From: Treponemataceae bacterium
Lineage (GTDB): Bacteria > Spirochaetota > Spirochaetia > Treponematales > Rectinemataceae
Direction of reading: 5' to 3'
DNA: 14,152 nt
Assembly (NCBI GenBank): GCA_963677895.2
Contig: CAXXGJ010000014.1
Coordinates: forward strand, 1 to 14,152
Position 1 is the stretch's first letter. Each line of letters opens with the position of its first letter. This document shows, piece after piece, positions 1-13,917 of this stretch. Made by a program: the position numbers and the translations under genes. The notes beneath the pieces are model-generated. The model saw only the letters and a program-made list of their open reading frames with translations. It had not been told where the DNA came from and did no database searches.

Positions 1-912
1 TCATCCTGCTTCGACGCCAACGGCGCCGTCTTCGAGCCTCTGCTGGACGAGAACTGCGCGATCATAACCGACAGCCTCAATCATGCTTCCATCATCGACG
101 GCGTCAGGCTCTGCAAGGCCAAACGCATTGTTTTCAAGCATGCCGACATGCGCGATATCGAAGAGACCGATCCCGACACCGGCAAGGTGGCCAAGGGGCT
201 CGAGCGCTGCCTGAAAGAGGCGTCTGACGCGAGGATCCGCATGATCGCCACGGACGGCGTCTTCTCCATGGACGGCGACATCGCCGATCTCAAATCCATA
301 TGCGCGCTCGCCGAGAAATATGACGCTCTCGTCATGGTGGACGATTCCCACGCCACCGGATTCACCGGGGCGACGGGGCGCGGCACCTGGGAACATTGCG
401 GCGTGAAGGGAAGGGTGGACATCATCACCACCACCTTCGGCAAGGCGCTGGGCGGGGCTTCCGGCGGCGTGATCGCCGCCAGGAAGGAAATCGTCGAGTA
501 CATGAGGCAGAAGGCCCGGCCCTATCTATTCTCCAATACCGTGGCGCCCTCCATCGTGGGAGGCACGCTGAAGGCTCTCGAACTTCTCAGCGCGTCGACC
601 GCCCTGAGGGACAAGCTCGAGGCGAATACCAGGCGGTTCAGGGAGAAGATGACGGCGGCGGGCTTCGACATCAGACCCGGCGTCCATCCTATCTGCCCGG
701 TCATGCTGTACGACGAAAAACTGGCCCACGACATGGCCGATGCACTTCTTGAGGAAGGCATCTATGTCATCGGATTCTCCTTCCCCGTCGTGCCGAGGGG
801 CAAGGCTCGCATAAGGGTGCAGATTTCCGCCGCCCATGAACCGGGGCAAATCGACTTCGCCGTGGAGGCTTTTACCAAGGTTGGAAGAAGGCTGGGCGTG
901 ATCAAGGCATGA
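1..912 (+). CDS. kbl: Glycine C-acetyltransferase (2-amino-3-ketobutyrate CoA ligase), 5'-truncated by the window edge
   Basis: Frame 1 is open from base 1: [15 protein letters not shown]...[41 protein letters not shown]-lysine motif [41 protein letters not shown] at 910-912. Confidence 0.93.
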
Positions 913-932
913 GGGAGCTTCTCCGCGCCTAC

Positions 933-961
933 TTTACGTTCCGGGAGGTTTTCGCTATATT
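933..961 (+). promoter_or_regulatory. Putative sigma70 promoter for the FmdB-family gene
   Basis: TTTACG (933-938), 17 bp, TATATT (956-961); SD GAGGT at 999-1003 before ATG 1012. Confidence 0.5.
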
Positions 962-1011
962 TTCTACTCGAACCAACATTTCATCATTTCGCTAGACCGA
1001 GGTTAATCTAA

Positions 1012-1272
1012 ATGCCTACGTATGAGTATGAATGCCGAGAGTGTAATCTTACTTTCGAAAAATTCCAGTCCATGTCCGAGGACCCTGTCAAGGTCTGCCC
1101 CAAGTGCGGCGGAGCCGTCAGGCGCCTGATCGGCGGCGGAACCGGCGTCATCTTCAAGGGCAGTGGTTTCTATATCACCGACTCCAAGAAAGCGGGCAGC
1201 GCGTCGACGAAGAGCGCCGCCAAGAGCTGCGAGACCTGTCCCGCGAGCGGCACCAAGAAGGAGAGCGCCTAG
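1012..1272 (+). CDS. FmdB-family zinc-ribbon protein
   Basis: MPTYEYECREC...CPKCGG...FKGSGFYITD family signature; extra C-terminal CETC; SD upstream. Confidence 0.92.
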   Translation: MPTYEYECRECNLTFEKFQSMSEDPVKVCPKCGGAVRRLIGGGTGVIFKGSGFYITDSKKAGSASTKSAAKSCETCPASGTKKESA

Positions 1273-1275
1273 CGG

Positions 1276-2166
1276 CTATATGCCTTTTTCCAGCTGGGCT
1301 TTGGCCTGCTCCAGGGGCATGTCGAGCAGTTCGGGACTGGCGATGAGCCTGTAGAAGACCGAGGCCGAGCGCGCGAAGTAGAGACCGTCGGAAATCCTTT
1401 CGTCCACCGTTACCTTGAAATTTATGAAGTGGTGTTTCGTGCCGAAGGGGCCGTGGTGGCTGTCCTTCTGCGTGAGTTTGCCCATCACCACGAAGAAGCT
1501 AATGGTGCCCCATTCGTAAAGATGGTGGAAGGGCGCGTCGAGTCCGATGCTGCCCAAATTCGCGAAGAAGAGGGTGGCGTAGAAGGGGTCCACTTCGATA
1601 AGGCCTTTCGGGGCAAGATTGAAGCGGTCGAGAATCCTGTAGAGACCGATGAGGAGAGCCTTGGCGCCGGGAATGCTGTGGGCGAGCTTGGCTATCTTCT
1701 CGCCGTCCCCGCCTTCCCCTACTTCCCGCACATAGTTGATAGCCTTGTTTACCTTCAGCGTCACCGTATCGAGATCATCCTCGGGCTTGAAAACAACCTT
1801 CGCGCTTCCTTCCGGAGCTTCTTCCGTCATTTTCTGCTTCACGATGAATGACATGGTAATGTCGTTGTGCTGGTAGAGGGCCTTGCCGTGTATGAAACGG
1901 TTGAGTTCCGGCCTGATCGCCACGGTCCGCACCATCGCCGCCAGAACGAGGGAAAACAATGAATATCGATCCTGGCCCGAATTCTCGTTCTGATTCTTCA
2001 GTCCGGAGTTTCTCGCCCTCACGAAACGCAGGATATTCTCGACATCCACGTCCTTTTCATAGTACACGGCCGATTGATTGCGTCCGCGCATCATGTAGGG
2101 CATAAGCGCGTTGAGCGCATGGGCTTGTCGGACTTTTTTGCCGTCTGGTCTGTCGATGAAAAGCAT
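1276..2166 (-). CDS. Stand-alone 2-oxoacid dehydrogenase E2 / CAT-like acyltransferase catalytic-domain protein
   Basis: Motifs RPELNRFI, FFANLGSIG, TVDERISDG (variant of DHRxxDG); no lipoyl domain. Start placed at ATG 2166 (MLFIDRPDG), which is 7 nt downstream of TATAGT. Confidence 0.78.
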   Translation of the reverse strand: MLFIDRPDGKKVRQAHALNALMPYMMRGRNQSAVYYEKDVDVENILRFVRARNSGLKNQNENSGQDRYSLFSLVLAAMVRTVAIRPELNRFIHGKALYQHNDITMSFIVKQKMTEEAPEGSAKVVFKPEDDLDTVTLKVNKAINYVREVGEGGDGEKIAKLAHSIPGAKALLIGLYRILDRFNLAPKGLIEVDPFYATLFFANLGSIGLDAPFHHLYEWGTISFFVVMGKLTQKDSHHGPFGTKHHFINFKVTVDERISDGLYFARSASVFYRLIASPELLDMPLEQAKAQLEKGI

Positions 2167-2173
2167 GGAATGA

Positions 2174-2179
2174 ACTATA
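2174..2179 (-). promoter_or_regulatory. -10 element of a probable leaderless transcript
   Basis: Minus strand reads TATAGT-tcattcc-ATG with no SD. Confidence 0.5.
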
Positions 2180-2278
2180 TAGTAGCGATACAATTAGGTA
2201 AAGTATCGACGGGGACCGCGGCCCCTGGCCGGAAATTTTGTTTTTTTCGCCCGCGCGGGACTTTTTTCGATTTTCCTG

Positions 2279-2311
2279 TGTTAAACTCAATGTATCCTTC
2301 TTTTCAGGAGG
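2279..2311 (+). promoter_or_regulatory. Putative extended -10 promoter and SD of the four-gene operon
   Basis: TG-t-TAAACT (2279-2287) with T-tracts upstream; AGGAGG at 2306-2311, 9 nt before TTG 2321. Confidence 0.45.
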
Positions 2312-2320
2312 CACCACGTT

Positions 2321-3355
2321 TTGGATGATGCGCCGAAAAACGCAAGATCCTTAAGAGTACTGATCCTTTTTTCACGTTCTTCCAATACCGCCGTGGCCAT
2401 GGCCGACGATCGGCGCTTCGGCCGGTTCGCGTCGATCCTCGCCGACGGCGGATTCACCGCCAGGCTGGCATGCCCCGACTCCATCGCTATGCTTTCCGCC
2501 CTCATCGCCGAGTTCGGCCCCGACCTTGTTTTCAGCGCCCCCGACCATTTGCCCGAGTCCTCCCCGATGCCCGTCGGCGTCGCCTTTCCGGCGAACGCCA
2601 GGATAAACGTGCATGGCTGGCTGGAGGGAAGGGGAATCCCCTATGTGGGCTCCCCTCCCGATATCATAGAGCTCGCTCTTTCCAAGACGGCGCTCAAGGA
2701 AAAATGGGTAAAGGACGGAATATCCACGCCCGAGTTCCTCTCCTTGAACTCAGGTTCCGATCTTTCCGCCGTGGACAGGTCCTCGATTCCCCCCTTTCCC
2801 TGCATCGTGAAGCCGTCGGACGCCGGCAACTCCCGCGGCATCACGAAGGATTCGGTCGTTTTCGACATGAAAGCCTTGGCTTCCCTCGTCGCCAGCCTGG
2901 GCAAGGATTTCAGGCATATCCTCATCGAGCATTACCTGGGGCTCTACCCCGATTTCCGCGAAATCACCTGCGCATGCATAGGCAACGGCGAGGAGAGGCT
3001 CCTCATGCCCGTGGAAATTGTCTTTATCGATCCTCCCGGCATTCACGTGGTCACGACAGAGGATAAGGACGGCAGCAGGACCGAAGCCCGGCCGATAGCG
3101 GACGGATCCTTGCGCGAGGCGGCCCGGGCCTTCGCGGCCGCGGCCTTCTCGTCGGCGGGGGATATCAGGGATTATTCCCGATGCGACATGATTTTCGCCG
3201 GCGGGAAATTCTGGGCCATCGAAATCAACGGCCAGCCCATGATTCCCGACGCTTGGTTCGAGGCCTGCGCGCGGCAGGCGCATCTCTCGGAGAAGCAATA
3301 TATCCTGGCTATCATCGAGGCGGCCCTCAGCCGTTCGATCCGGACTAGGAGGTGA
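2321..3355 (+). CDS. ATP-grasp ligase, D-Ala-D-Ala ligase-like but non-canonical
   Basis: GIPYVGS, LALSKTALK...GISTP, PCIVKPSDAGNSRGI, LIEHYL, REITC, RDYSRCD, IEINGQP; lacks the Ddl GGxSxE and HGxxGEDG motifs; TTG start with strong SD. Confidence 0.82.
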   Translation: MDDAPKNARSLRVLILFSRSSNTAVAMADDRRFGRFASILADGGFTARLACPDSIAMLSALIAEFGPDLVFSAPDHLPESSPMPVGVAFPANARINVHGWLEGRGIPYVGSPPDIIELALSKTALKEKWVKDGISTPEFLSLNSGSDLSAVDRSSIPPFPCIVKPSDAGNSRGITKDSVVFDMKALASLVASLGKDFRHILIEHYLGLYPDFREITCACIGNGEERLLMPVEIVFIDPPGIHVVTTEDKDGSRTEARPIADGSLREAARAFAAAAFSSAGDIRDYSRCDMIFAGGKFWAIEINGQPMIPDAWFEACARQAHLSEKQYILAIIEAALSRSIRTRR

Positions 3356-3359
3356 TACG

Positions 3360-5249
3360 ATGTTTAAAATTTCCAGACATGACGTTTTCGGCCTTATTCG
3401 GCCTTCGATAGACGTGCATACCCTCGGGATGCTTTCCTTCGCCCAGGTCCTGGAGGACTGCGGCATAGAATCCCGCATCGCCGACGCCGATGTCGGCGGC
3501 GATATCGAATCCCTTTCCAGGCACGAGGGCGGCACCGTGCTTCGTGCCTGGCTTCGCAACAGGAAAATTTCGGTGCTCGGCTTCAGCTACCGGCTGGACC
3601 CCGCCGATGCCCTCCATCTTTTCGAAGTCCTATATGAGTTCCTCCACCGCGAGAAAATGCTTCTTTCGGATGGCGGTCCTATCAGGGGGCTGTTTTTCGC
3701 CGGGCTTCCTGAAGCCTGCGAGGCGGCGCTCGCCCGGCATCCCGATCTGACAGGCGTTTTCCGGGGCGACGAAGCGCCCCACGAGACGATGCGCATCCTC
3801 GGCATAGATGAGGACATGATGCCGCAAACCTTCTCCGAAGGTCTCAAGTACGACGTCGCGAGGATGGCTTTCGGCGAGTCCCTCGTGAAGGAAGGCCGCT
3901 ACAACGCGGTGAAGCCCGTCAACAGGTCCGACTCTCCCGGATTCGGCGCCTGGGGCGACAGGCTGACGGCGAGGATCGCCCATGGCACTGCCCGAAAGCT
4001 CCCGCCCCTCATACGCGTCCATGCCGGCCCCTACCTGCCCGACAGGAAGGAAGCGGTCAGGCTTTTCACCGAGTGGGTGAAGCGGCTGGCCTCGGGCGGC
4101 TATCTGGACATTCTCTCGATCGGCACTTCCCAGCTCAGCCAATCCAATTTCGGGGAAGACTGGGAAGGCAAGATCAACGGCGGCGGCGTTCCCCTCGCCA
4201 GCGCCGCCGAGTTCGCGGCTGTATGGAAGGCGGCGCGCCCCATGCTGGTGCGTACCTACGCGGGCACCAAGGATGTGCCGGCCCTCGCCAGGATGTACGA
4301 GGAAACGATCGATATAGCCTGGCACGCGCTTTCCCTGTGGTGGTTCTGCAAGCTGGATGGAAGAGGTCCCAACTCGGTGCTTGAAAACCTCAGGGAGCAT
4401 TTTCAGGCCATGCGCTACATAGCCTCGACGGGCAAGCCGCTCGAGATGAACGTGCCGCATCATTTCGCTTTCAGGGGCAGCGACGACCTTGGGTATGTCG
4501 TGTCGGGCTATATCGCGGCCAAGGCCGCCAAACTGCAGGGCATCCGGAACCTCGTCCTGCAGATAATGTTCAATACGCCCAAATACCTCTGGGGCATCCA
4601 GGACCTCGCCAAGGCTAGGACCCTTCTCAAGCTGGTGAAAGGACTCGAGGACGGGAATTTCAGGGTCTTCCTCCAGCCGCGGGGAGGCTTGGACTATTTC
4701 TCGCCAGAACCCGAGCGGGCCAAGGCCCAGCTGGCCGCGGTGACCGCCATGATGGACGACATCGAGCCTCACGACGAGACCAGCCCTCAGATCATCCATG
4801 TCGTGAGCTATTCCGAAGCCTATAAGCTGGCCGATCCGCCCGTCATTGAGGAGAGCATCAGGATCACGCGCCACGCGCTGCGGGAGTACCGGCGACTCAG
4901 GCGCGAAGGCGGCGTGGACGACATGGTCTCGAGCGCCGAGGTGGCCGCGCGCGAGAAGATCCTGCTGGACGATGCCGTGAAAATGATAAAGGCCGTGGAA
5001 ACCCTCATTCCCGACACCTATTCCCCCTATGGGCTCTATACGATGCTTTCTTCGGGCGTCTTCGCCCTTCCGTGGCTGACTTCCTGCCGCGAGGAATTCC
5101 AGGCCGCGAATATCGGGACCCGACTCGTGAACGGCGGCATGCATGCCGTCGACGCGGAAGGATCGCCTCTTCCCGTGGAAGCGAGGATCGAGATGGCGAG
5201 AGCCAATCTGGCCAAGGCTAGCGGCGGAGGAGGTCGTTATGGCATCTGA
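3360..5249 (+). CDS. Cobalamin (B12)-binding domain protein with a large C-terminal domain; putative B12-dependent enzyme
   Basis: N-terminal D18-V-H20-T-L-G23 (DxHxxG), GFS76YRL and LFFAG115 match the His-on cobalamin Rossmann motifs; no CxxxCxxC; SD AGGAGGT overlaps the upstream stop. Confidence 0.75.
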   Translation: MFKISRHDVFGLIRPSIDVHTLGMLSFAQVLEDCGIESRIADADVGGDIESLSRHEGGTVLRAWLRNRKISVLGFSYRLDPADALHLFEVLYEFLHREKMLLSDGGPIRGLFFAGLPEACEAALARHPDLTGVFRGDEAPHETMRILGIDEDMMPQTFSEGLKYDVARMAFGESLVKEGRYNAVKPVNRSDSPGFGAWGDRLTARIAHGTARKLPPLIRVHAGPYLPDRKEAVRLFTEWVKRLASGGYLDILSIGTSQLSQSNFGEDWEGKINGGGVPLASAAEFAAVWKAARPMLVRTYAGTKDVPALARMYEETIDIAWHALSLWWFCKLDGRGPNSVLENLREHFQAMRYIASTGKPLEMNVPHHFAFRGSDDLGYVVSGYIAAKAAKLQGIRNLVLQIMFNTPKYLWGIQDLAKARTLLKLVKGLEDGNFRVFLQPRGGLDYFSPEPERAKAQLAAVTAMMDDIEPHDETSPQIIHVVSYSEAYKLADPPVIEESIRITRHALREYRRLRREGGVDDMVSSAEVAAREKILLDDAVKMIKAVETLIPDTYSPYGLYTMLSSGVFALPWLTSCREEFQAANIGTRLVNGGMHAVDAEGSPLPVEARIEMARANLAKASGGGGRYGI

Positions 5250-6390
5250 CAAAAGCTGGCAGCAAGTTTGCGATATCCTGAAGGACGTGAAGGCCAAGGG
5301 GAAAAAAGCCCTGTGGTGCGTGGTGGGCGCCGGCAACGGAGGAATTTCCATGGCCGGCCACCTGGGGTTCATGGGCTTCGAGGTCCGCCTTTACAATAGG
5401 ACGGACGAGCATCTCAACGCCGTGCGCTGGTATGGTGGCATAGAGCTCGAAGGCGCGGTGGAGGGATTCGGTCCCGTCAGTCTGGCCACCTCATCCATCC
5501 AGGCCGCGGTCGAGGGCGCCGACGTCGTGATGATCGTCACGCCCTCCACGGCTCACTATTCGCTGGCCGCGGCCATGGCCCCCTTCCTCAATGACGGGCA
5601 GGTGATCGTCCTGAATCCAGGCAGGACGGGAGGCGCCCTGGAATTCCGCGCCGTGCTGAAGCAGTCGGAATCGCGAGTCAAGCCGATCATCGTGGAAGCG
5701 CAGACCTTCATCTACGCTTCGCGGGCCGTCAGCCGCCACAAAGGCCATATCTACAGGATCAAGAACGGCGTACCCGCGAGCGCCCTGCCTTCGCACATGA
5801 CACCCGACGCTCTTGCCGTGCTGAATCAGGCTTTCCCCGAGTTCACCGCCGGCTCCAACGTGCTGGCGACGAGTCTCGAGAATATCGGCGCTGTCTTCCA
5901 TCCCGCCCTCACTCTGCTCAACGCTGGCTGGATAGAATCGACGGAGGGCAATTTCGAGTATTACATCCAGGGCATGTCGCCGGCGGTCGCCAAGGTTCTC
6001 GAGAAGATCGACGACGAGAGGCTGGCCGTGGCGAGAGCCCTGGGCATACGCACCGTCTCGGCCAGGGAATGGCTTTACCTTACCTACGACTCCCCGGGCG
6101 ACACCCTCTGCGCGGCGATAAAGGCCACGACGGGCTATTTCGGGATAAAGGCGCCGCCGACGATCAACCATCGCTATATATGGGAAGACGTACCCATGAG
6201 CCTCGTGCCGATGTCCTCCATAGGAGCCATGCTCGGGATACCGACACCTACCATAGACATGATCATCACGCTCGCCGAGCTGATGAACGGCAGCGATTAC
6301 AGAGCCGTAGGAAGAACGGTCGAAACGCTGGGCATCAAGGGAATGAGCGTCGAGCAGATTCACCGACTCGTCACCGAAGGCGACGAGTGA
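5239..6390 (+). CDS. NAD/NADP-dependent octopine/nopaline (opine) dehydrogenase family protein
   Basis: Rossmann VVGAGNGG, LNPGRTGG, ENIGAVFHP, FEYYIQG, ERLAVARALG, HRYIWEDVPMSLVP; SD GGAGGAGG (5226-5233) supports ATG 5239, which overlaps the upstream gene by 11 nt. Confidence 0.9.
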   Translation: MASDKSWQQVCDILKDVKAKGKKALWCVVGAGNGGISMAGHLGFMGFEVRLYNRTDEHLNAVRWYGGIELEGAVEGFGPVSLATSSIQAAVEGADVVMIVTPSTAHYSLAAAMAPFLNDGQVIVLNPGRTGGALEFRAVLKQSESRVKPIIVEAQTFIYASRAVSRHKGHIYRIKNGVPASALPSHMTPDALAVLNQAFPEFTAGSNVLATSLENIGAVFHPALTLLNAGWIESTEGNFEYYIQGMSPAVAKVLEKIDDERLAVARALGIRTVSAREWLYLTYDSPGDTLCAAIKATTGYFGIKAPPTINHRYIWEDVPMSLVPMSSIGAMLGIPTPTIDMIITLAELMNGSDYRAVGRTVETLGIKGMSVEQIHRLVTEGDE

Positions 6391-6400
6391 GGAGGAGCCT

Positions 6401-7093
6401 ATGAATTTTACCGATATTTTGGATTCCATCGCCTCATCGTTCAATTCGCTTCCGCCGATAGCCGGGGCGTTTCTGACCTTTCTTCTGGGCTGGCTCGTCG
6501 CCCGTTTCGCCCGCTTCTTCACGCCGAAACTGATGACGCTTCTGCGATTCGACCGTTTCAGCGAAAAGACGGGGATTAACGGTTTCCTGAAAAAGGGGAA
6601 TGTCCACTATACGCCGTCGAAGCTGTTGGGGATGCTCGTCTACTGGTTTTTGATGATCCTGACGCTTTCGAACACGGTGGCGAGGCTCGACAAAGGGGCG
6701 GCATCATCCATCCAGGTATGGATAAGCTCGGCCCTGCCGATACTGATAGCCACGGGCATTATCGTCGTGATAGGCATTGTCGTCGTCACCTTCCTGTCGA
6801 ATTTTTTCATCACCATCGCCAGGAACGGCGCCGTACACAATCCTGTTCTGATAGGCAACGCGATCAAATATATCGGATTCATCGTCGTGGCGACCTTGGC
6901 CCTGGACCAGCTCGGCTTCGGCCAGACCATCGTGAGCACCATCTTCATACTCCTGTTCGCCGCGATAGCCCTTGGGCTGGCCCTTGCCTTCGGCCTCGGC
7001 TGCAAGGACATGGCGAGGAAACTGATGGAAGACTTCATCAGGAATATCCAGGAGAAGGAGAGAATCAAGCATGGCACGGATCTGGAAGGCTAG
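6401..7093 (+). CDS. CmpX-like / MscS-associated TM-helix-repeat membrane protein
   Basis: About five hydrophobic segments; LPPIAGAFLTFLLGWLVAR repeat unit; ALDQLG...ALGLALAFGLGCKD; no MscS beta domain; SD GGAGGAG. Confidence 0.78.
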   Translation: MNFTDILDSIASSFNSLPPIAGAFLTFLLGWLVARFARFFTPKLMTLLRFDRFSEKTGINGFLKKGNVHYTPSKLLGMLVYWFLMILTLSNTVARLDKGAASSIQVWISSALPILIATGIIVVIGIVVVTFLSNFFITIARNGAVHNPVLIGNAIKYIGFIVVATLALDQLGFGQTIVSTIFILLFAAIALGLALAFGLGCKDMARKLMEDFIRNIQEKERIKHGTDLEG

Positions 7094-7785
7094 GCTCTCG
7101 CTTCGGCGACGAGCGCCTCGGCCAGCAAGGTCATGGGATCGATGAGAGGGACCTTGAGGAATTCCTGCGAAAGGACGAGAGGCACTTCGGTGCAGCCGGC
7201 CACGATGGCGTCGGCGCCCGCCAGCACGAGCCTTTCGGCCGCCTGGACGAGAAGGGAGCGCGGATAATCTCCCCTGTTCCCCGCCTTTATGCCGTTTTTC
7301 CCGTAAATGGCTTCCATGACGAGATTGGCCTGGGCTTCGTCATCGGGCCATAGGATCGAATACTCGGCAAGGGAAGTCTCGTAGAGTCTGGCGGCCTTCG
7401 TTCCCGCCGTCGCGAGGATCCCCAGCCTGCGCGCCTGGGGGTAATTTGCATGCATCGCGGCGGCCATGGTCTCGAGGGCCGAGATGAATCGGAGGCCTGA
7501 GAGTTCCTTAAGTCGCGGAAGGAAGTTGTGCGCCGTCATGCAGGTTATGCCGATGATGTCGGCTCCGGCCGCCTCGAGCCTTTTCAGCGAGGCGAGCATG
7601 GCGGGGACGGGATCGGGCCCCTTGCCCAGTATGTTCGCCGTTCTGTCGGGAATGGAAGGATCGCATTCGATGACGATATGCGCGTGATCCTGATCCCTCG
7701 CGGCCTTGTCGAAAGAGAGCAGTTTCACGAAAAAGTCCGATGTCGCCTCGGGGCCCATGCCGCCGAGAATCCCAATGGTTTTCAT
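7090..7785 (-). CDS. Aspartate/glutamate racemase family amino-acid racemase (PLP-independent)
   Basis: KTIGILGGMGPEAT, PSIPDRT, two catalytic Cys (ITCMTAH, AGCTEVP), GILATAGT. Start is ATG 7785 or 7788. Its stop overlaps the stop of the convergent gene (CTAG 7090-7093). Confidence 0.9.
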   Translation of the reverse strand: MKTIGILGGMGPEATSDFFVKLLSFDKAARDQDHAHIVIECDPSIPDRTANILGKGPDPVPAMLASLKRLEAAGADIIGITCMTAHNFLPRLKELSGLRFISALETMAAAMHANYPQARRLGILATAGTKAARLYETSLAEYSILWPDDEAQANLVMEAIYGKNGIKAGNRGDYPRSLLVQAAERLVLAGADAIVAGCTEVPLVLSQEFLKVPLIDPMTLLAEALVAEARA

Positions 7786-7840
7786 CATTCCTTCCTTTAT
7801 TTTGCTCGATGAAAATGTTCTCAAATCCGCGCGTTCCCAA

Positions 7841-7909
7841 AGTGTACAGCATTCGCGGGTTCATGGGCAATAAATAATATTTGCGTTATTCGGCTTTTCA
7901 GTTTACCAT
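7841..7909. promoter_or_regulatory. Back-to-back divergent sigma70-like promoters (racemase / transporter)
   Basis: Plus strand TTGCGT (7881-7886), 17 bp, TACCAT (7904-7909); minus strand TTGCCC (7870-7865), 18 bp, TACACT (7846-7841). Confidence 0.55.
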
Positions 7910-7978
7910 TCTTTTTGGCGCTCATCCCTATTTCGCCGTCGGGCGAGCGCCTGTCCGAAATAACCAAGGAGGATTTTC

Positions 7979-9289
7979 ATGGCAGAAACGAAAGAAAAGA
8001 AGGGGCTTTTTGGCTGGTATTTCAAGACCAACCTTCTCATCCGGATTCTCATCGGCCTCGTGCTGGGCGCCATCGTGGGTATCATCCTGGGATTCTTCCC
8101 CGATTCGGTAAAAGTCTTCGTTGACAATTCCAAATTCTTCGGCGATCTCTTCATCAGGCTGTTGAAGATGATGATCGTGCCGGTTATTCTTTTCTCCCTC
8201 ATCGCGGGCGCCGCGAGCATCGATCCCGGCCGTCTGGGAAGAATCGGCGTCAAGATCATGGTGTACTACCTCTTCACGAGCGCCTTCGCCGTCGTCGTGG
8301 GACTTATCTTCGCCAATATCTTCCAGCCTGGCGTCGGCTTCAATGTCGTGGGGACCGCGGCCGTGCAAGGTAAAGCGGCGGCTGTGCCTACGGTTTCGCA
8401 GATCATACTCAACATCGTTCCGACCAATCCCATCGACTCCCTCGCCAAGGGCGACGTCTTGCCGATCATCTTCTTCGCCGTGGTCTTCGGCATCTCGCTC
8501 TCCTACATCAAGGATTCGGCCAATAAATCCCTGGCCAAGAGCGGCCAGATGCTTCTCGACGTGATCAACGCCGGAGCCGAGACCATCTACAAGGTCGTGA
8601 CCGGCATCATGCAGTATGCCCCGATCGGCGTATTCGTCCTTATCGCGCAGGTCTTTGCCCAGCAGGGCGCCAAGGCTATAGGCCCCCTCCTGGTCGTGAC
8701 CTTGGCCGTCTATCTCGGCCTGATCGTTCAGGTCGTCGTCGTCTACGGCGGCTTCCTGGCTGTATTCAAGCTGGGGCTGTGGAAATTCCTTAAAGGCGCC
8801 AACGAGGCGATGCTCACGGCCTTCGTGACCCGTTCCTCCAACGCCACGCTCCCCGTCACCATGCGCTGCGCAGAGGAAAATCTCGGCATTCCGCGCAAGA
8901 TATGCTCCTTCACGCTGCCCCTGGGCGCCACGATCAATATGGACGGCACGGCTATCTACCTCGGCGTATGCGCGATATTTATCGCGAACGCCATCGGCAG
9001 GCCGCTGACGATGAGCCAGCAGGGCATGGTCGTCCTGACCGCCACTCTCGCCAGCATCGGCACGGCGGGCGTCCCCGGCGCCGGCGCCATCATGCTTCTC
9101 ATGGTCCTCGAATCCATCGGCCTCAAGGTGACCGAAGGTTCCGATGTCGCGGCCGCCTACGCCATGATCCTGGGCATCGACGCCCTTCTCGACATGGGCC
9201 GGACCAGCATCAACATCACGGGCGATATCGTCGGTTCCGCCATCGTCGCGAAGAGCGAGAAAGAACTCGACATGACGAACTGGAAATAA
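7979..9289 (+). CDS. Dicarboxylate/amino acid:cation symporter (DAACS), GltPh/GltTk-like probable Na+/aspartate symporter
   Basis: [70 protein letters not shown]. Confidence 0.93.
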
Positions 9290-9595: not shown

Positions 9596-10873
9596 ATGAA
9601 AAAGAAAATCGTACTCGCATATTCGGGCGGCCTCGACACTACCGTCATCGTTCCCTGGCTCAAGGAAAATTATGACTGCGACGTGGTCGCGGCCTGCGGG
9701 GACGTCGGCCAGGAGGCCGACTGGGCTGCCATGGAAAAACGCGCCCTCGCTTCCGGCGCGATAAAGTTCATCAAGGTGGACCAGAAAGACGAGTTCGTGA
9801 AGGACTACCTCTGGGCTCTCGTGAAGTCGGGAAGCCCCTACGAGAAGAAATATCTGCTTGGAACCTCGGCGGCGCGTCCCCTCCTCGCCAAGGGCCTGGC
9901 GCAGGTCGCCATCGCCGAGAAAGCCGACGCGATCGCCCACGGCTGCACGGGCAAGGGCAACGACCAGGTCCGCTTCGAGCTGGGCATCAAAGCCTTCGCC
10001 CCGGAGATGGAAGTGATAGCTCCCTGGAGAATATGGGACATCCAGAGCAGGGAAGAGGAAATCGAATACCTCGAGAAGAGGAACATCCCCGTGCCCATGA
10101 AGAAGTCCGACTCCTATTCCCGCGACGACAATGTCTGGCACATCAGCCACGAGGGTCTCGATCTCGAGAATCCTGCCAACGAACCCAAGTTCGAAGGCAT
10201 GCTCAAAATGTGCGTTCCCCCCGAACAGGCGCCCGACAAGGCCGAATACGTGACCATCGGCTTCGAGAAGGGCGTGCCCGTCTCGGTGAACGGCGAGAAG
10301 CTCGATCCCCTCTCCATCGTCAAGAAGCTCAACGTCATCGGCGGCAAGAACGGCGTGGGCGTCATCGACATGGTGGAAAACCGCGTCGTCGGCATGAAGT
10401 CCCGCGGCGTCTACGAGACGCCGGGCGGCACCATCATCATGGAAGCCCACGACAAGCTCGAGCAGCTCTGCCTCGACAGAAAGACGCTCTCCTTCAAGCT
10501 CACCGTGGCGCAGCGCTTCGCCGAGATCCTCTACGAAGGCGAGTGGTTCTCACCCCTCTGCGCGGCGCTCAACGCCTTCATCGATTCGACACAGGAAGTG
10601 GTGACCGGCAGCGTGACCGTAAAGCTCTACAAGGGCTCCATACTCTCGGCCGGCGCGACCTCGCCCTATTCGCTCTACGACGCGAGCCTCGCGAGTTTCA
10701 CGACGGGACCGCTCTTCTCCCACAAGGATTCCAGCGGCTTCATCAACCTCTTCGGCCTGCCCACCAAGGTGAGGGCGCGGCTCAACGCGCGCATCGCCGC
10801 CCACGGCACGGCCGCCGGCCCCGATGTGGTGAAACCGGGCTGTTCAGGCTATACTGCTCCAGCGGGCGACTGA
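9596..10873 (+). CDS. argG: Argininosuccinate synthase
   Basis: KIVLAYSGGLDTT, YLLGTSAARP, AHGCTGKGNDQVRFE, SRDDNVWHISHEG, ENRVVGMKSRGVYETPG; SD TAAGGAG. Confidence 0.98.
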   Translation: MKKKIVLAYSGGLDTTVIVPWLKENYDCDVVAACGDVGQEADWAAMEKRALASGAIKFIKVDQKDEFVKDYLWALVKSGSPYEKKYLLGTSAARPLLAKGLAQVAIAEKADAIAHGCTGKGNDQVRFELGIKAFAPEMEVIAPWRIWDIQSREEEIEYLEKRNIPVPMKKSDSYSRDDNVWHISHEGLDLENPANEPKFEGMLKMCVPPEQAPDKAEYVTIGFEKGVPVSVNGEKLDPLSIVKKLNVIGGKNGVGVIDMVENRVVGMKSRGVYETPGGTIIMEAHDKLEQLCLDRKTLSFKLTVAQRFAEILYEGEWFSPLCAALNAFIDSTQEVVTGSVTVKLYKGSILSAGATSPYSLYDASLASFTTGPLFSHKDSSGFINLFGLPTKVRARLNARIAAHGTAAGPDVVKPGCSGYTAPAGD

Positions 10874-10936
10874 TGTGACGACAAATGCCGAGCGTCGACG
10901 CGCCATGGGCGCGGGCGGTTCGGCATGAGATTGATA

Positions 10937-10967
10937 AGGGGAGGCGCCGCGCCTCCCCTCATTTTTT
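10937..10967 (+). terminator. Intrinsic terminator-like hairpin between argG and argH
   Basis: AGGGGAGGCG / loop CCG / CGCCTCCCCT (10-bp perfect stem) followed by CATTTTTT. Confidence 0.72.
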
Positions 10968-10984
10968 ATAAGGATGGTGCTGAA

Positions 10985-12466
10985 GTGGCTAAGCTATGGC
11001 AGGCCGCCGCGGGCGGCGTGGGGCTCCACCCCGACGTGGAAGCCTTTCTCTCTTCGCTTTCGGTCGATACGAGGCTCCTGGGCGAGGACATCGAGTGTTC
11101 GATAGCCCACGCGGCGATGCTGGGGAGGCAGGGGATTCTTCCGCCCGAGGAGTCGGCGTCGATATGCGCGGCGCTCGAGCTTATGCTGGCCGAGGCCGGG
11201 GATGGGAAGCTCGCCGTAGATCCGGAGAGCGAGGATATTCATTCCTTCATCGAGGCCGAGCTGACGAAGAGGCTCGGCGAGGCGGGGAAGGCCGTCCATG
11301 CCGGGAGAAGCCGGAACGACCAGGTGGCCGTCGCCTTCAGGCTGCACATTCTGAGGGCTTTCGACGCTACGGAGGGGGCGGCACTGGGCGCGCTGCGGGC
11401 TTTGCTCGGTCTGGCCGAGAATCATAGGGAAACGATCATGCCGGGGTATACGCACCTGCAGCGCGCCCAGCCGGTGACGCTCGCGCACCATTTGCTCGCC
11501 TGGTGCGCGGCCCTCGAGCGCGACTGCGGCAGGTTGCGGGACGGACGCGCGCGGGCGGACGAATGCCCGCTGGGCTCAGGCGCCCTCGCGGGATCGGGCC
11601 TGCCCACCGACAGGGAATTCACGGCCGCCGCCTTAGGGTTCGCGCGTCCGTCCCGCAACACCATGGACGCCGTCGCCGATAGGGACGCATGTTTGGACTA
11701 CGGGGCGGCCTGTTCCAGCATAATGGTCCACCTCTCGCGCGCCTGCGAGGATATCGCCCTCTGGGTATCCACCGAATATTCATTCATGAGCCTGAGCGAC
11801 GCCGCGAGCACCGGCTCGAGCATCATGCCCCAGAAGAGGAATCCCGATCCCGCGGAGCTTATACGAGGGAAGACCGCGAGGGTCTTCGGGGCGCTCCAGG
11901 CCCTACTCGTCATGCAGAAAGGCCTGCCCTATGCCTACAACCGCGATCTCCAGGAGGACAAGGAAATGTTCTTCGACATCGAGGACACCGTGATCGGGGC
12001 CCTGCGCGCCTTTGCCGTCCTCGTCTCCTCGCTCCAGCCCAATGTCGAAAAGATGCGGAAAGCGGTGGATGAGGGTTTCCTCGAGGCTACCGACATCGCC
12101 GAATATCTCGTGCTGGAAGGCCTGCCTTTCAGGACAGCGTATCAGGCGGCCAAGGCCCTCGTGAAACTCAGCCTCTCCTCCGGTAAGCGTTTCTCCGCGC
12201 TGTCTCTCGAGGAAATCCAGGCTAGCCATGAGGCTTTCGCCAAACCCGGCTTCGATCGGGAAGCCTTTATCGACTATCTCGAGCCCGCATCCTGCATGGC
12301 GAGGCGAAGACAGACCGGCGGCCCCGCGCCCGAACGCACCGGCGAGGAGGTCCAGCGTCTGTCGGCCTTTGTCGCCGCGAGACAGGCCTCCCTGGCCGCT
12401 CAAGCCGCCGCCCAGCTGGCCGCCCGGCCGGCTGCGCATCAGCCCGCGCGGAGCGCCTCGCTTTGA
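10985..12466 (+). CDS. argH: Argininosuccinate lyase
   Basis: MAKLW start (GTG 10985, SD AAGGATGG), EDIH, HAGRSRNDQ, MPGYTHLQRAQP, PLGSGALAG, fumarate-lyase signature GSSIMPQKRNPD, YNRDLQEDKE. Confidence 0.97.
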   Translation: MAKLWQAAAGGVGLHPDVEAFLSSLSVDTRLLGEDIECSIAHAAMLGRQGILPPEESASICAALELMLAEAGDGKLAVDPESEDIHSFIEAELTKRLGEAGKAVHAGRSRNDQVAVAFRLHILRAFDATEGAALGALRALLGLAENHRETIMPGYTHLQRAQPVTLAHHLLAWCAALERDCGRLRDGRARADECPLGSGALAGSGLPTDREFTAAALGFARPSRNTMDAVADRDACLDYGAACSSIMVHLSRACEDIALWVSTEYSFMSLSDAASTGSSIMPQKRNPDPAELIRGKTARVFGALQALLVMQKGLPYAYNRDLQEDKEMFFDIEDTVIGALRAFAVLVSSLQPNVEKMRKAVDEGFLEATDIAEYLVLEGLPFRTAYQAAKALVKLSLSSGKRFSALSLEEIQASHEAFAKPGFDREAFIDYLEPASCMARRRQTGGPAPERTGEEVQRLSAFVAARQASLAAQAAAQLAARPAAHQPARSASL

Positions 12467-13285
12467 AACCGGCCGAAGCGGCGGCGCCTGAGGCGCCCGA
12501 CGCGCTTTCTGGGGGGATCGCGCCCACCGCGCTCTCTGAGACTGCCGCGCCAGCTGAGATTGAGGCGCCCGCCGTTCTCCCCTGCATCCTCCTCGCCGCG
12601 GGCGCTAGCTCGCGGATGGGGCGGCCCAAGCTGCTGCTGTCTCTGGACGGCGAGCCCGTCGTTCGGAGAACAGCCCGAATCGCTCTCGCTCATTGCCGGC
12701 CGCTCATCGTCGTCACCGGGTTCGGGCGCGAGAACATCGAGGCGGCGCTGACTGGTCTCGACGATATCGTCTTCGTCCACAATCCTGACTGGAAAGAGGG
12801 AAGGGTGACTTCGGTCCTCGCCGGCATCGAAGCGCTTCCGATAGATTGTCCCGGTTTCTTCCTTCACCACGCCGACATGCCCTTCGTCGACGAGACGGTC
12901 TTCGCCGCCCTGAGCCGCGCCGCATCGTTGCAGCTCGCCGCCGCGGGGGCGCCCTGTCGCCCCCAATGCCCCCGTCGCTCTCGTCGCTCTCGTCGCGGGA
13001 CGAAACGGGAAGGCGGGCCATCCCGTCTATTTCCCCGCTTCCTATATTCCCGCCATCCAGGCCAAGCGGACCGGCGAAAAACTCATGGGCGTCCTCGCGG
13101 CCTTAGGCTCCCTCATTGTCGAAACCGGATGTGACGGCGTCCTGGAGGACATGGACAGCCCCGAGGAATACGCCGCCCTGGCCGCGAAATACGGCCTGAG
13201 CCCGGAAGCGGCAACCGCCCTGGGAGCGATTGCCGGCCCAGAGCCGCGCCCCAGCCCTGGGGATGTGGCCAAGGCCAAAGCATAA
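12463..13285 (+). pseudogene. MocA/MobA-like nucleotidyltransferase (NTP_transf_3) with one +1 frameshift near 12945-12954; probably an intact gene with a sequencing error
   Basis: Frame 1: ILLAAGASSRMGRPKLLL, HNPDWKEG, HADMPFV. Frame 2 continues ...GRNGKAGHPVYFP...DMDSPEEY to TAA 13285. TTG start overlaps the argH stop (TTGA). Confidence 0.8.
12973..12996 (+). repeat. 9-bp tandem repeat, about 2.7 copies of CGTCGCTCT
   Basis: cgtcgctct-cgtcgctct-cgtcgc; encodes VAL-VAL-VA in the restored frame. Confidence 0.8.
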
Positions 13286-13304: not shown

Positions 13305-13795
13305 ACGCAGCAGGGCGAAAAAAAGCGGCGAAAAGACCAACGTGATCCGGCTTCTCGAAGCCGCGAACCTTCCTTTCGAAATCCTTCATTATAAAGTGGA
13401 CGAGGACCTCTCGGCGACCCACGCGGCGGAAAAGCTCGGGCTCGATCCGGACCAGGTTTTTAAGACGATCGTCCTGTCGGGCGAAAGGATGGGCCATTTC
13501 GTCTGCGTCATCCCCGGATCCTGCGAGATAGACCTGAAAAAAGCGGCCAAGGCCCTAGGCGACAAGAGCTGCTCCCTCCTCCCCTCTCAAGGAGCTGGAA
13601 CCCCTCACGGGCTACGTGAGGGGCGGCTGTTCCCCCATCGGCATGAAAAAGCGATTTCCCACCTTCCTCGACGAGACCGCCTTCCTCTTCGAGAAGATTT
13701 CCGTGAGCGCCGGCAGGAGAGGCATGCAGGCGCTGATCAGCCCCCGGCTTCTGCTCGACATCGTGGGAGCCGCCGCCGCCGATCTCATCGCCTGA
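13302..13795 (+). pseudogene. ybaK: Cys-tRNA(Pro) deacylase YbaK with two +1 frameshifts (A7 run 13318-13324; C4 run 13581-13584); probably sequencing errors
   Basis: Restored protein MTQQGEKSGEKTNVIRLLE...QVFKTIV...DLKKAAKA...LPLKELEPLTGYVRGGCSPIGMKK...VSAGRRGMQ; TGA 13793-13795. Confidence 0.87.
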
Positions 13796-13832
13796 TCCGC
13801 CCAAGCCGGATGCTTCCTGGCAGTCTTATCGT

Positions 13833-13917
13833 ACTGGATAAATATGCATAAAAATTACATAAATACGTAAAATCTGCGTCCCACCCCTTGATGCGACCCC
13901 TTCATCCCCGCTATTTT
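13833..13917 (+). promoter_or_regulatory. Tandem ARG boxes and putative carA promoter
   Basis: acTGGATaaatATGCAta (13833-13850), 3 bp, atTACATaaatACGTAaa (13854-13871); TTGATG (13888-13893), 18 bp, TATTTT (13912-13917). Confidence 0.65.

Follow-up and report, generated by a model that had tools for sequence, protein, structure and literature searches.

A predicted adenosylcobalamin mutase paired with a dedicated opine dehydrogenase in a spirochaete operon and its relatives

To our knowledge, only about a dozen reactions of adenosylcobalamin (AdoCbl) isomerases have been described, and the enzymes closest to the protein considered here are glutamate mutase (GlmS/GlmE, EC 5.4.99.1; 1cb7, 6h9e), which pairs with methylaspartate ammonia-lyase, and the aminomutases that depend on pyridoxal phosphate (PLP), namely lysine 5,6-aminomutase (1xrs/8t0v) as well as ornithine 4,5-aminomutase (3kow; OAM). 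As to gene sets, the pyrrolysine pathway unites a mutase, an ATP-grasp enzyme and a dehydrogenase in one cluster, and the N-acetylglutaminylglutamine amide (NAGGN) osmolyte pathway (AsnO and Ngg) builds an amidated solute with ATP-grasp and AsnB-like enzymes; neither is known to include an opine dehydrogenase or a mutase that uses AdoCbl. A further precedent is the novel B12-dependent family that Zhang et al. predicted in 11 bacteria in 2009, with a distant B12 domain at the N-terminus, always adjoining a pfam02317 gene and in the vicinity of genes for a D-Ala-D-Ala ligase and an asparagine synthase, for which experiments were called for (BMC Genomics 10:78, PMC2667541). Here, we analysed a 14,152-nt stretch of DNA from the anaerobic spirochaete Treponemataceae bacterium (Rectinemataceae), hereafter the window, which is the whole of contig CAXXGJ010000014.1 (C14) of a genome assembly (GCA_963677895.2) that is 92.8% complete with 5.5% contamination, and which carries a putative four-gene operon centred on a protein of this kind.

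The family represented in the window has the gene context described by Zhang et al., with an adjacent pfam02317 gene and Ddl-like or AsnB-like genes nearby, the two being likened by description and not by sequence. That work covered 11 genomes and offered neither a mutase assignment nor a pathway nor a test (PMC2667541), and no later functional study of the family was found in the literature searched, outside which most subscription journals lie. The first-pass annotation of the window recognised no described pathway with this combination of genes; the gene association itself had been published, with no pathway set out alongside it (PMC2667541). That association is known but unexplained, and the enzyme at its centre is, as judged from its sequence and predicted structure, a variant of the AdoCbl mutases with a reaction that appears to be undescribed.

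The four plus-strand open reading frames (ORFs; 2321–3355, 3360–5249, 5239–6390 and 6401–7093) are spaced by exactly 4, −11 and 10 nt, each start has an AGGAGG-type Shine–Dalgarno (SD) sequence 5–9 nt on its 5′ side, and the set is bounded by a divergent gene (1276–2193, minus strand) and a convergent racemase-like gene (7090–7824, minus strand), the latter overlapping the last operon stop by 4 nt. ORFs, gaps, SD sequences and flanking genes are those first annotated. As for the gene assignments made at that stage, the ligase, the B12 protein and the opine dehydrogenase are borne out by domains or motifs, and the membrane protein read as MscS-like is instead CmpX-like.

The second gene (3360–5249, plus strand) encodes a 629-aa protein that we predict to be a fused AdoCbl mutase. 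No Pfam match reached E ≤ 0.1, and searches of PDB sequences with the protein or its alignment returned chance matches only. Residues 18–23 read DVHTLG, an instance of the DxHxxG cobalt-ligand motif of His-on AdoCbl mutases such as glutamate mutase, with His20 encoded at 3417–3419. In an AlphaFold2 (AF2) model with a predicted local distance difference test (pLDDT) score of 90.8, an N-terminal B12-binding Rossmann domain (residues ~1–150) is followed by a GlmE-like TIM barrel (~193–612); modelled from its single sequence, the B12 domain came out poorly (pLDDT 52). The top Foldseek match of the full model is glutamate mutase E (1cb7_B, E = 4.8e-12), to which VIA aligned 378 residues at 15% identity with a Z score of 29.0 and a root-mean-square deviation of 3.4. 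VIA Z scores fell to 28.0 for lysine 5,6-aminomutase, 25.8 for OAM, ~20 for the acyl-CoA mutases and at most 17.5 for unrelated barrels, and the top 26 structural matches are all AdoCbl mutases. The B12 domain also resembles that of the PLP aminomutases (E = 1.6e-4), and the barrel shares AKxR and HxxSxxEA motifs with the acyl-CoA mutases (MCM/ICM/HCM; profile probability 3%). An MCM-like barrel was considered as well; the idea was weakened by the Z scores, and a shallow profile alignment to MCM was not significant.

Among 7999 candidates scored, 2881 are relatives, and the family comprises 585 clusters at 50% identity. Conserved across 48 diverse full-length relatives are H20, G23, an SYRL strand, R219, H221, D250, S253, Q261, R/K298, Y300, W328, D333, R335, E362, R372, D376, Q401, R441, H480 and E486; H20 and G23 are present in 41 of 44 aligned diverse relatives and E486 in 43 of 47. 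The Asp of the DxHxxG motif is replaced by Cys in many members of a shorter subfamily, and PF02310 matches occur on relatives. PF06368, the GlmE family, gave no match for the window protein, and one of 20 relatives scored just above its cut-off (27.5 versus 26.6 bits). In a profile alignment with six GlmE proteins (probability 78%, E = 1.8e-5), H221, Q261 and Y300 fell on R66, R100 and R149, the glutamate-binding arginines of GlmE, which are thus not kept, and N364 and R441 fell on F216 and M294. E486 falls on GlmE Glu330, as it also does in a shallow alignment, so that the adenosyl-contacting glutamate after strand 8 (glutamate mutase Glu330, MCM Glu370, OAM Glu338) is kept; in GlmE this residue has been tied to activation of the Co–C bond (PMC4413051).

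Unlike two-component glutamate mutase, then, the window protein is a single chain with other residues at the arginine positions and an opine dehydrogenase, not methylaspartate ammonia-lyase, for a partner. It differs from the PLP aminomutases in that the loop bearing the PLP lysine (Lys629/Lys144), known from OAM (PMC3958899), is deleted: in the alignment a gap stands opposite the KHGG loop of OAM, and the B12 domain has no conserved lysine across the 48 relatives. The sole strongly conserved lysine of the mutase, K418, sits in a helix motif common to acyl-CoA mutases. A CxxxCxxC radical-SAM motif was found in none of the 48 relatives. Because the fold, E486 and H20 are kept while the GlmE arginines and the PLP-lysine loop are missing, we infer that the 629-aa protein is an AdoCbl radical isomerase distinct from both glutamate mutase and the PLP aminomutases, its pocket being more cationic. 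Of 20 distant relatives, selected by length or by distance, three carry a fused MutL/GlmL domain, a further likeness to glutamate mutase, one an ATP-grasp domain and one the C-terminal part of a dehydrogenase; the three MutL/GlmL fusions (P0181, P0225 and P0209) suggest a subgroup with its own reactivase. The family also contains a barrel-only homologue without a B12 domain or dehydrogenase neighbour (L009:7965-9344) and degenerate full-length homologues (P0138, P0141 and P0144) that lack H20 or H221. The host genome encodes other AdoCbl enzymes.

The gene neighbourhood was compared across 96 loci, comprising the window, sets of 9 and 6 loci, and the best 80 of 567 metagenome matches. An opine dehydrogenase gene lies beside the mutase gene in 85 of the 96, always on the same strand and, by ORF ends, within 300 nt in 75; ten of the 11 loci without it have a contig end within 500 nt. 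All four window genes occur together in 20 of the 96 loci, and the pair stands without ligase or membrane gene in 21. The mutase is encoded by 52 of the 69 genomes of the host family. Among 29 of their loci, the dehydrogenase comes next in all 29, 18 have the ligase ahead of the mutase, and 21 show the start of the membrane gene within the 1.5-kb flank. The dehydrogenase is likewise adjacent in all 16 loci of the shorter (~550 aa) mutase subfamily, seven of which have a ligase. Because the dehydrogenase is a near-constant neighbour of the mutase and the ligase and membrane genes are frequently missing, the conserved unit is one of two genes, mutase and dehydrogenase, with the other two optional. 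The early annotation had proposed an uncharacterised small-molecule pathway built on a B12-dependent rearranging enzyme and an opine dehydrogenase, which this pairing upholds. Co-occurrence of the genes in other genomes, on which that reading had been made to depend, holds widely for the pair but not for a fixed set of four. It had also drawn a parallel with the mutase–ligase–dehydrogenase logic of PylB/C/D. In the pyrrolysine pathway PylC sits between mutase and dehydrogenase; the analogy fails because here mutase and dehydrogenase stay together in loci where no ligase stands with them, and the radical-SAM motif is missing. Distances between mutases and between dehydrogenases are correlated (Mantel rho 0.65, 88 pairs), which we do not use as proof because kin share history. 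Samples by phylum contained the mutase in 7 of 301 genomes in the host phylum, 20 of 251 around genome G303, 4 of 401 around G301 and 2 of 351 around G302.

The third gene (5239–6390, plus strand; 383 aa) encodes the opine dehydrogenase, with Rossmann and Octopine_DH domains (PF02317, E = 2.1e-48; 164.6 bits versus a cut-off of 30) and full-length similarity to 1bg6, the N-(1-carboxyethyl)-norvaline opine dehydrogenase of Arthrobacter (E = 8.5e-70), whose catalytic His, Arg and Asp are kept. Among mutase-linked homologues, H221, R312, D317 and R129 are present in 79 of 79 and R54 in 77 of 78. We placed linked and unlinked enzymes in a quick tree. Two sets of genomes, of 201 and 151, were searched with PF02317, which left 42 usable loci after one of 43, split by a frameshift, had been dropped; a single branch (SH-aLRT 99) sets the 17 mutase-linked dehydrogenases apart from the rest. 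R129 is present in 17 of 17 linked and none of 25 unlinked enzymes, and R/K54 in 17 of 17 and 8 of 25, respectively. The window enzyme differs from 1bg6 in having Arg129 in place of Ala, in reading NRT and not DID at the cofactor site, and in belonging to the mutase-linked clade, whose members frequently run ~150–250 aa longer (25 of 85 linked dehydrogenases have at least 500 aa). The Arg at cofactor-site position 54, where 1bg6 has Asp, suggests NADP(H) use and therefore the direction of synthesis, and R129 suggests an extra carboxylate on the substrate. An N-terminal phosphotransferase system (PTS) EIIA domain was confirmed on the dehydrogenase L002:6398-8005, with L022, L023 and others similar, and such enzymes may be under ion- or phosphorylation-linked control. 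A second, unlinked opine dehydrogenase of the host genome (G000:C6; L025:7953-9056; L106) lacks both R129 and R54.

The two remaining genes are accessory. The first (2321–3355, plus strand; TTG start, 344 aa) encodes a putative Ddl-like ATP-grasp amide ligase (PF07478, E = 8.4e-13). Against Ddl it scores 64.7 bits, below the NCBIfam cut-off of 245.65, and the match begins only at residue 97, leaving the N-terminal substrate site unmatched; the ATP/metal and catalytic set K122, K164, E203, R287, D289, E301 and N303 is invariant in 40 of 40 orthologues. Another Ddl-like gene is present in the host genome. Five genomes without an adjacent ligase, all incomplete, were searched elsewhere for an orthologue of the first gene: four have no close one and one has a 64% copy on another contig. 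In the 96 loci, orthologues of the first gene occur in 25, AsnB-like genes in 27, both in 3 and a capsule-type ATP-grasp gene in 6, so that ATP-consuming amide ligases are found in 55. Of 30 AsnB-like ORFs, the N-terminal Cys is missing in 20, present in five and unreadable in five. The fourth gene (6401–7093, plus strand; 230 aa) matches only PF05552, reaches 55.4 bits for NF033912 against a cut-off of 100, has about five hydrophobic segments as putative transmembrane helices, and finds only PF05552/CmpX proteins among its atlas matches (0.95–0.96); the beta and C-terminal cage domains of MscS are missing. By domain content its product is CmpX-like and not a complete MscS channel. Other membrane genes recur beside the operon: a DUF5698/DUF2179 gene at L045 (confirmed with Pfam), L078, L213 and L219–L221, and a DUF389 gene at L065 (also confirmed), which appear as alternative membrane partners.

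Two genomic contexts offer clues to physiology. An Rfam scan of 93 loci found a riboswitch directly upstream on the coding strand in 13, namely an nhaA-I RNA in 12 (L035, L039, L041, L043, L045, L053, L057, L074, L077, L081, L091 and L172) and a c-di-AMP riboswitch at L103; L172 belongs to the host family and has the four-gene layout of the window. The nhaA-I RNAs are Li+ switches, some variants of which sense Na+, and they occasionally precede trehalose synthesis genes (PMC9646797); the supplements to that article list neither opine nor B12 terms. A CmpX-like gene is found in 31 of the 96 loci, a true MscS gene in 10 and a Na+/H+ exchanger gene in seven. The osmolyte hinted at in the first annotation thus receives independent support from the riboswitches and ion-transport neighbours of relatives. 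On one contig (L035/L036), the operon with its nhaA-I RNA and a divergent Na+/H+ exchanger gene occurs twice in tandem, ~10.6 kb apart. The only nhaA-I RNA of the host genome lies at C6:290315-290364, away from the operon. The second context is that of seven loci (L003–L006, L008, L020 and L101) in which the pair and an ATP-grasp gene lie inside polysaccharide clusters, next to sugar transferase and aminotransferase genes. In four of the seven, the pair stands between a PglC-type transferase gene and the site that an acyltransferase gene usually occupies. There is a precedent for an opine on Qui4N, O-antigens being known in which this sugar bears alanopine (PMC10609480). Both the salt-riboswitch and the capsule context speak for a biosynthetic role, with a carboxylic acid open to amidation as the product.

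These observations can be accommodated by a pathway in which the dehydrogenase would first join an amino acid and a 2-oxoacid with NADPH into an N-substituted glutamate, one of the two substrates being a C5 dicarboxylate, glutamate or 2-oxoglutarate. The mutase would then turn this compound into an N-substituted 3-methylaspartate by radical chemistry of the glutamate mutase type, its pocket having acquired new cationic residues that would suit a substrate richer in carboxylates. A carboxylate could subsequently be converted to an amide by the ATP-grasp enzyme where present, or by an AsnB-like enzyme in other lineages, and the CmpX-like protein may handle the membrane or the solute under the same stress. 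In the capsule clusters, the same two-enzyme core would provide an acyl group for an amino sugar. We consider it probable that the pair carries out a biosynthetic B12-dependent rearrangement coupled to reductive amination. Whether the product serves as a stress solute is a question on which we see the chances as evenly divided, and we give even odds, too, to the complete proposal that the predicted mutase and its dedicated dehydrogenase make a branched opine as a salt-stress solute. The exact substrates named above are tentative and more doubtful than the rest.

Several points weigh against this proposal. The locus sample is biased towards the best 80 of the 567 metagenome matches, and the loci are kin and not independent; one of them (L009), fully flanked and with a barrel that lacks the B12 domain, is a true exception in having no dehydrogenase. 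The residue mapping comes from a moderate profile alignment at ~15% identity and is uncertain in the beta-4 region, the shallow profile alignment to GlmE was not significant (probability 0.8%), and no MutL/GlmL match was found in the host genome at its 92.8% completeness. Rfam yielded nothing credible in the window, a riboswitch is missing in 80 of the 93 scanned loci, many of which have short upstream flanks, and the riboswitch-led loci include near-duplicates (L053/L057). A sigma70 scan found nothing above chance.

The order of the two core steps may also be the reverse, a less probable alternative, with the mutase acting first, independently of PLP, on a 2-oxoacid or its imine with an amino acid (C=O or C=N as the group that migrates); the dehydrogenase would then trap a labile product as an opine. 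Strict gene pairing would suit such a labile intermediate, the PLP-lysine loop is deleted, the barrels of the aminomutases match the model practically as well as GlmE does (Z 28.0 versus 29.0), and Y300 aligns, weakly, with Tyr160 of OAM, a residue that contacts the substrate carboxylate (PMC3958899). Against this stand the profile alignments of the barrel to OAM and lysine aminomutase, which are not significant (probability 1.5% and 1.0%), and the hydrolysis of free imines in water. We know of no precedent for a mutase acting on a 2-oxoacid or imine without PLP. Unlikely, in our estimate, is the more far-reaching idea that the protein would be an AdoCbl isomerase of a new class that moves nitrogen or rearranges the skeleton through a 2-oxoacid imine in place of PLP, with the dehydrogenase locking the product, which would be an undescribed osmolyte common across anaerobic phyla, reused as a capsule decoration.

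If the pair were instead catabolic, the mutase would rearrange an external opine or amino-acid derivative that the dehydrogenase then cleaves oxidatively. Fermentation or catabolism is the setting both of 1bg6, the closest solved relative of the dehydrogenase, and of most AdoCbl mutases, the hosts are anaerobes, and the 21 loci with the pair alone would fit; the ATP-consuming amide ligases of 55 loci, the placement in capsule clusters, the NADP(H)-type signature and the salt riboswitches all point the other way, and no recurring substrate importer was seen among the scanned neighbours, which makes this reading improbable. We give as little credence to a product that is mainly an envelope building block, a glycan acyl group or part of a wall peptide, in the spirochaete of the window as well, with the Ddl-like ligase attaching it. 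The capsule loci of Bacteroidales and L020 and L101, the Ddl-like nature of the first gene and the alanine racemase-like genes near L050 and L067 are consistent with such a role, but the window contains no glycan genes, the capsule loci have other ATP-grasp types, the host genome has its other Ddl-like gene, and the ligase is missing in many loci.

That the 629-aa protein might be a methylcobalamin methyltransferase or corrinoid carrier is very unlikely. DxHxxG motifs also occur in corrinoid proteins, and Zhang et al. noted a similarity to COG5012 (PMC2667541); the methyl transfer entertained in the first-pass annotation is nevertheless not supported, the barrel being of AdoCbl mutase type, with the structural matches, the kept equivalent of Glu330, the MutL fusions of relatives and the lack of a radical-SAM motif all on the other side. 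Opine dehydrogenases do make staphylopine-like metallophores, an alternative that had likewise been raised for this operon, but neither the window nor a scan of 90 proteins from operons and their neighbours contained a nicotianamine synthase or metal importer, no staphylopine or pseudopaline dehydrogenase is among four PDB matches, and the riboswitches point to alkali ions, so that such a product is scarcely credible here.

The family probably hides a new B12-dependent radical reaction and a new metabolite, because it is large, lies outside GlmE and the PLP aminomutases by the residues tested, and is tied to one dehydrogenase clade. Its two-gene minimal unit, together with the predicted NADPH preference, makes the proposal directly testable. 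If it is true, anaerobes have an extra demand for B12 that current annotation would miss, the protein of the window having no match in Pfam.

Ahead of the operon, a candidate extended −10 promoter (GTGTTAAACT, 2278–2287, plus strand) is suggested by motif recurrence. GTGnTAnnnT, a motif picked post hoc after the upstream sequences had been viewed, occurs in 18 of the 40 distinct regions that lie upstream in spirochaete relatives, against a mean of 1.0 and a maximum of 4 in shuffles and three on the reverse strand. A second, independent-looking contig, which may be source data, spans positions 1200–8000 with two differences and no gaps. Contigs from one possible RNA run span the operon and the convergent gene; the run may be DNA, and they are uninformative on co-transcription. 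Another contig of the host genome (G000:C28:1-4857, L024) carries a copy 99.2% identical to positions 1–4856 that breaks off within the mutase gene where the contig stops; with 5.5% contamination in the assembly, a second strain binned together with the host is more probable than a duplication. The same locus is found at 83% identity in a genome of the same genus.

In the divergent gene (1276–2193, minus strand), the sole domain recognised is one like the catalytic domain of 2-oxoacid dehydrogenase acyltransferases (PF00198, E = 2.5e-6); the gene adjoins the operon in seven of the 96 loci, all close relatives. The convergent gene (7090–7824, minus strand) encodes an Asp/Glu-type racemase that exceeds the cut-off for cysteate racemase CuyB; it is divergent from a probable dicarboxylate/amino-acid symporter gene (7979–9289, plus strand), and its link to the operon is confined to close relatives. 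Further downstream (9596–12466) lie argG-like and argH-like genes, recognised from their translations, followed by MobA-like (12463–13134) and YbaK-like (13342–13851) genes whose tails are possibly frameshifted.

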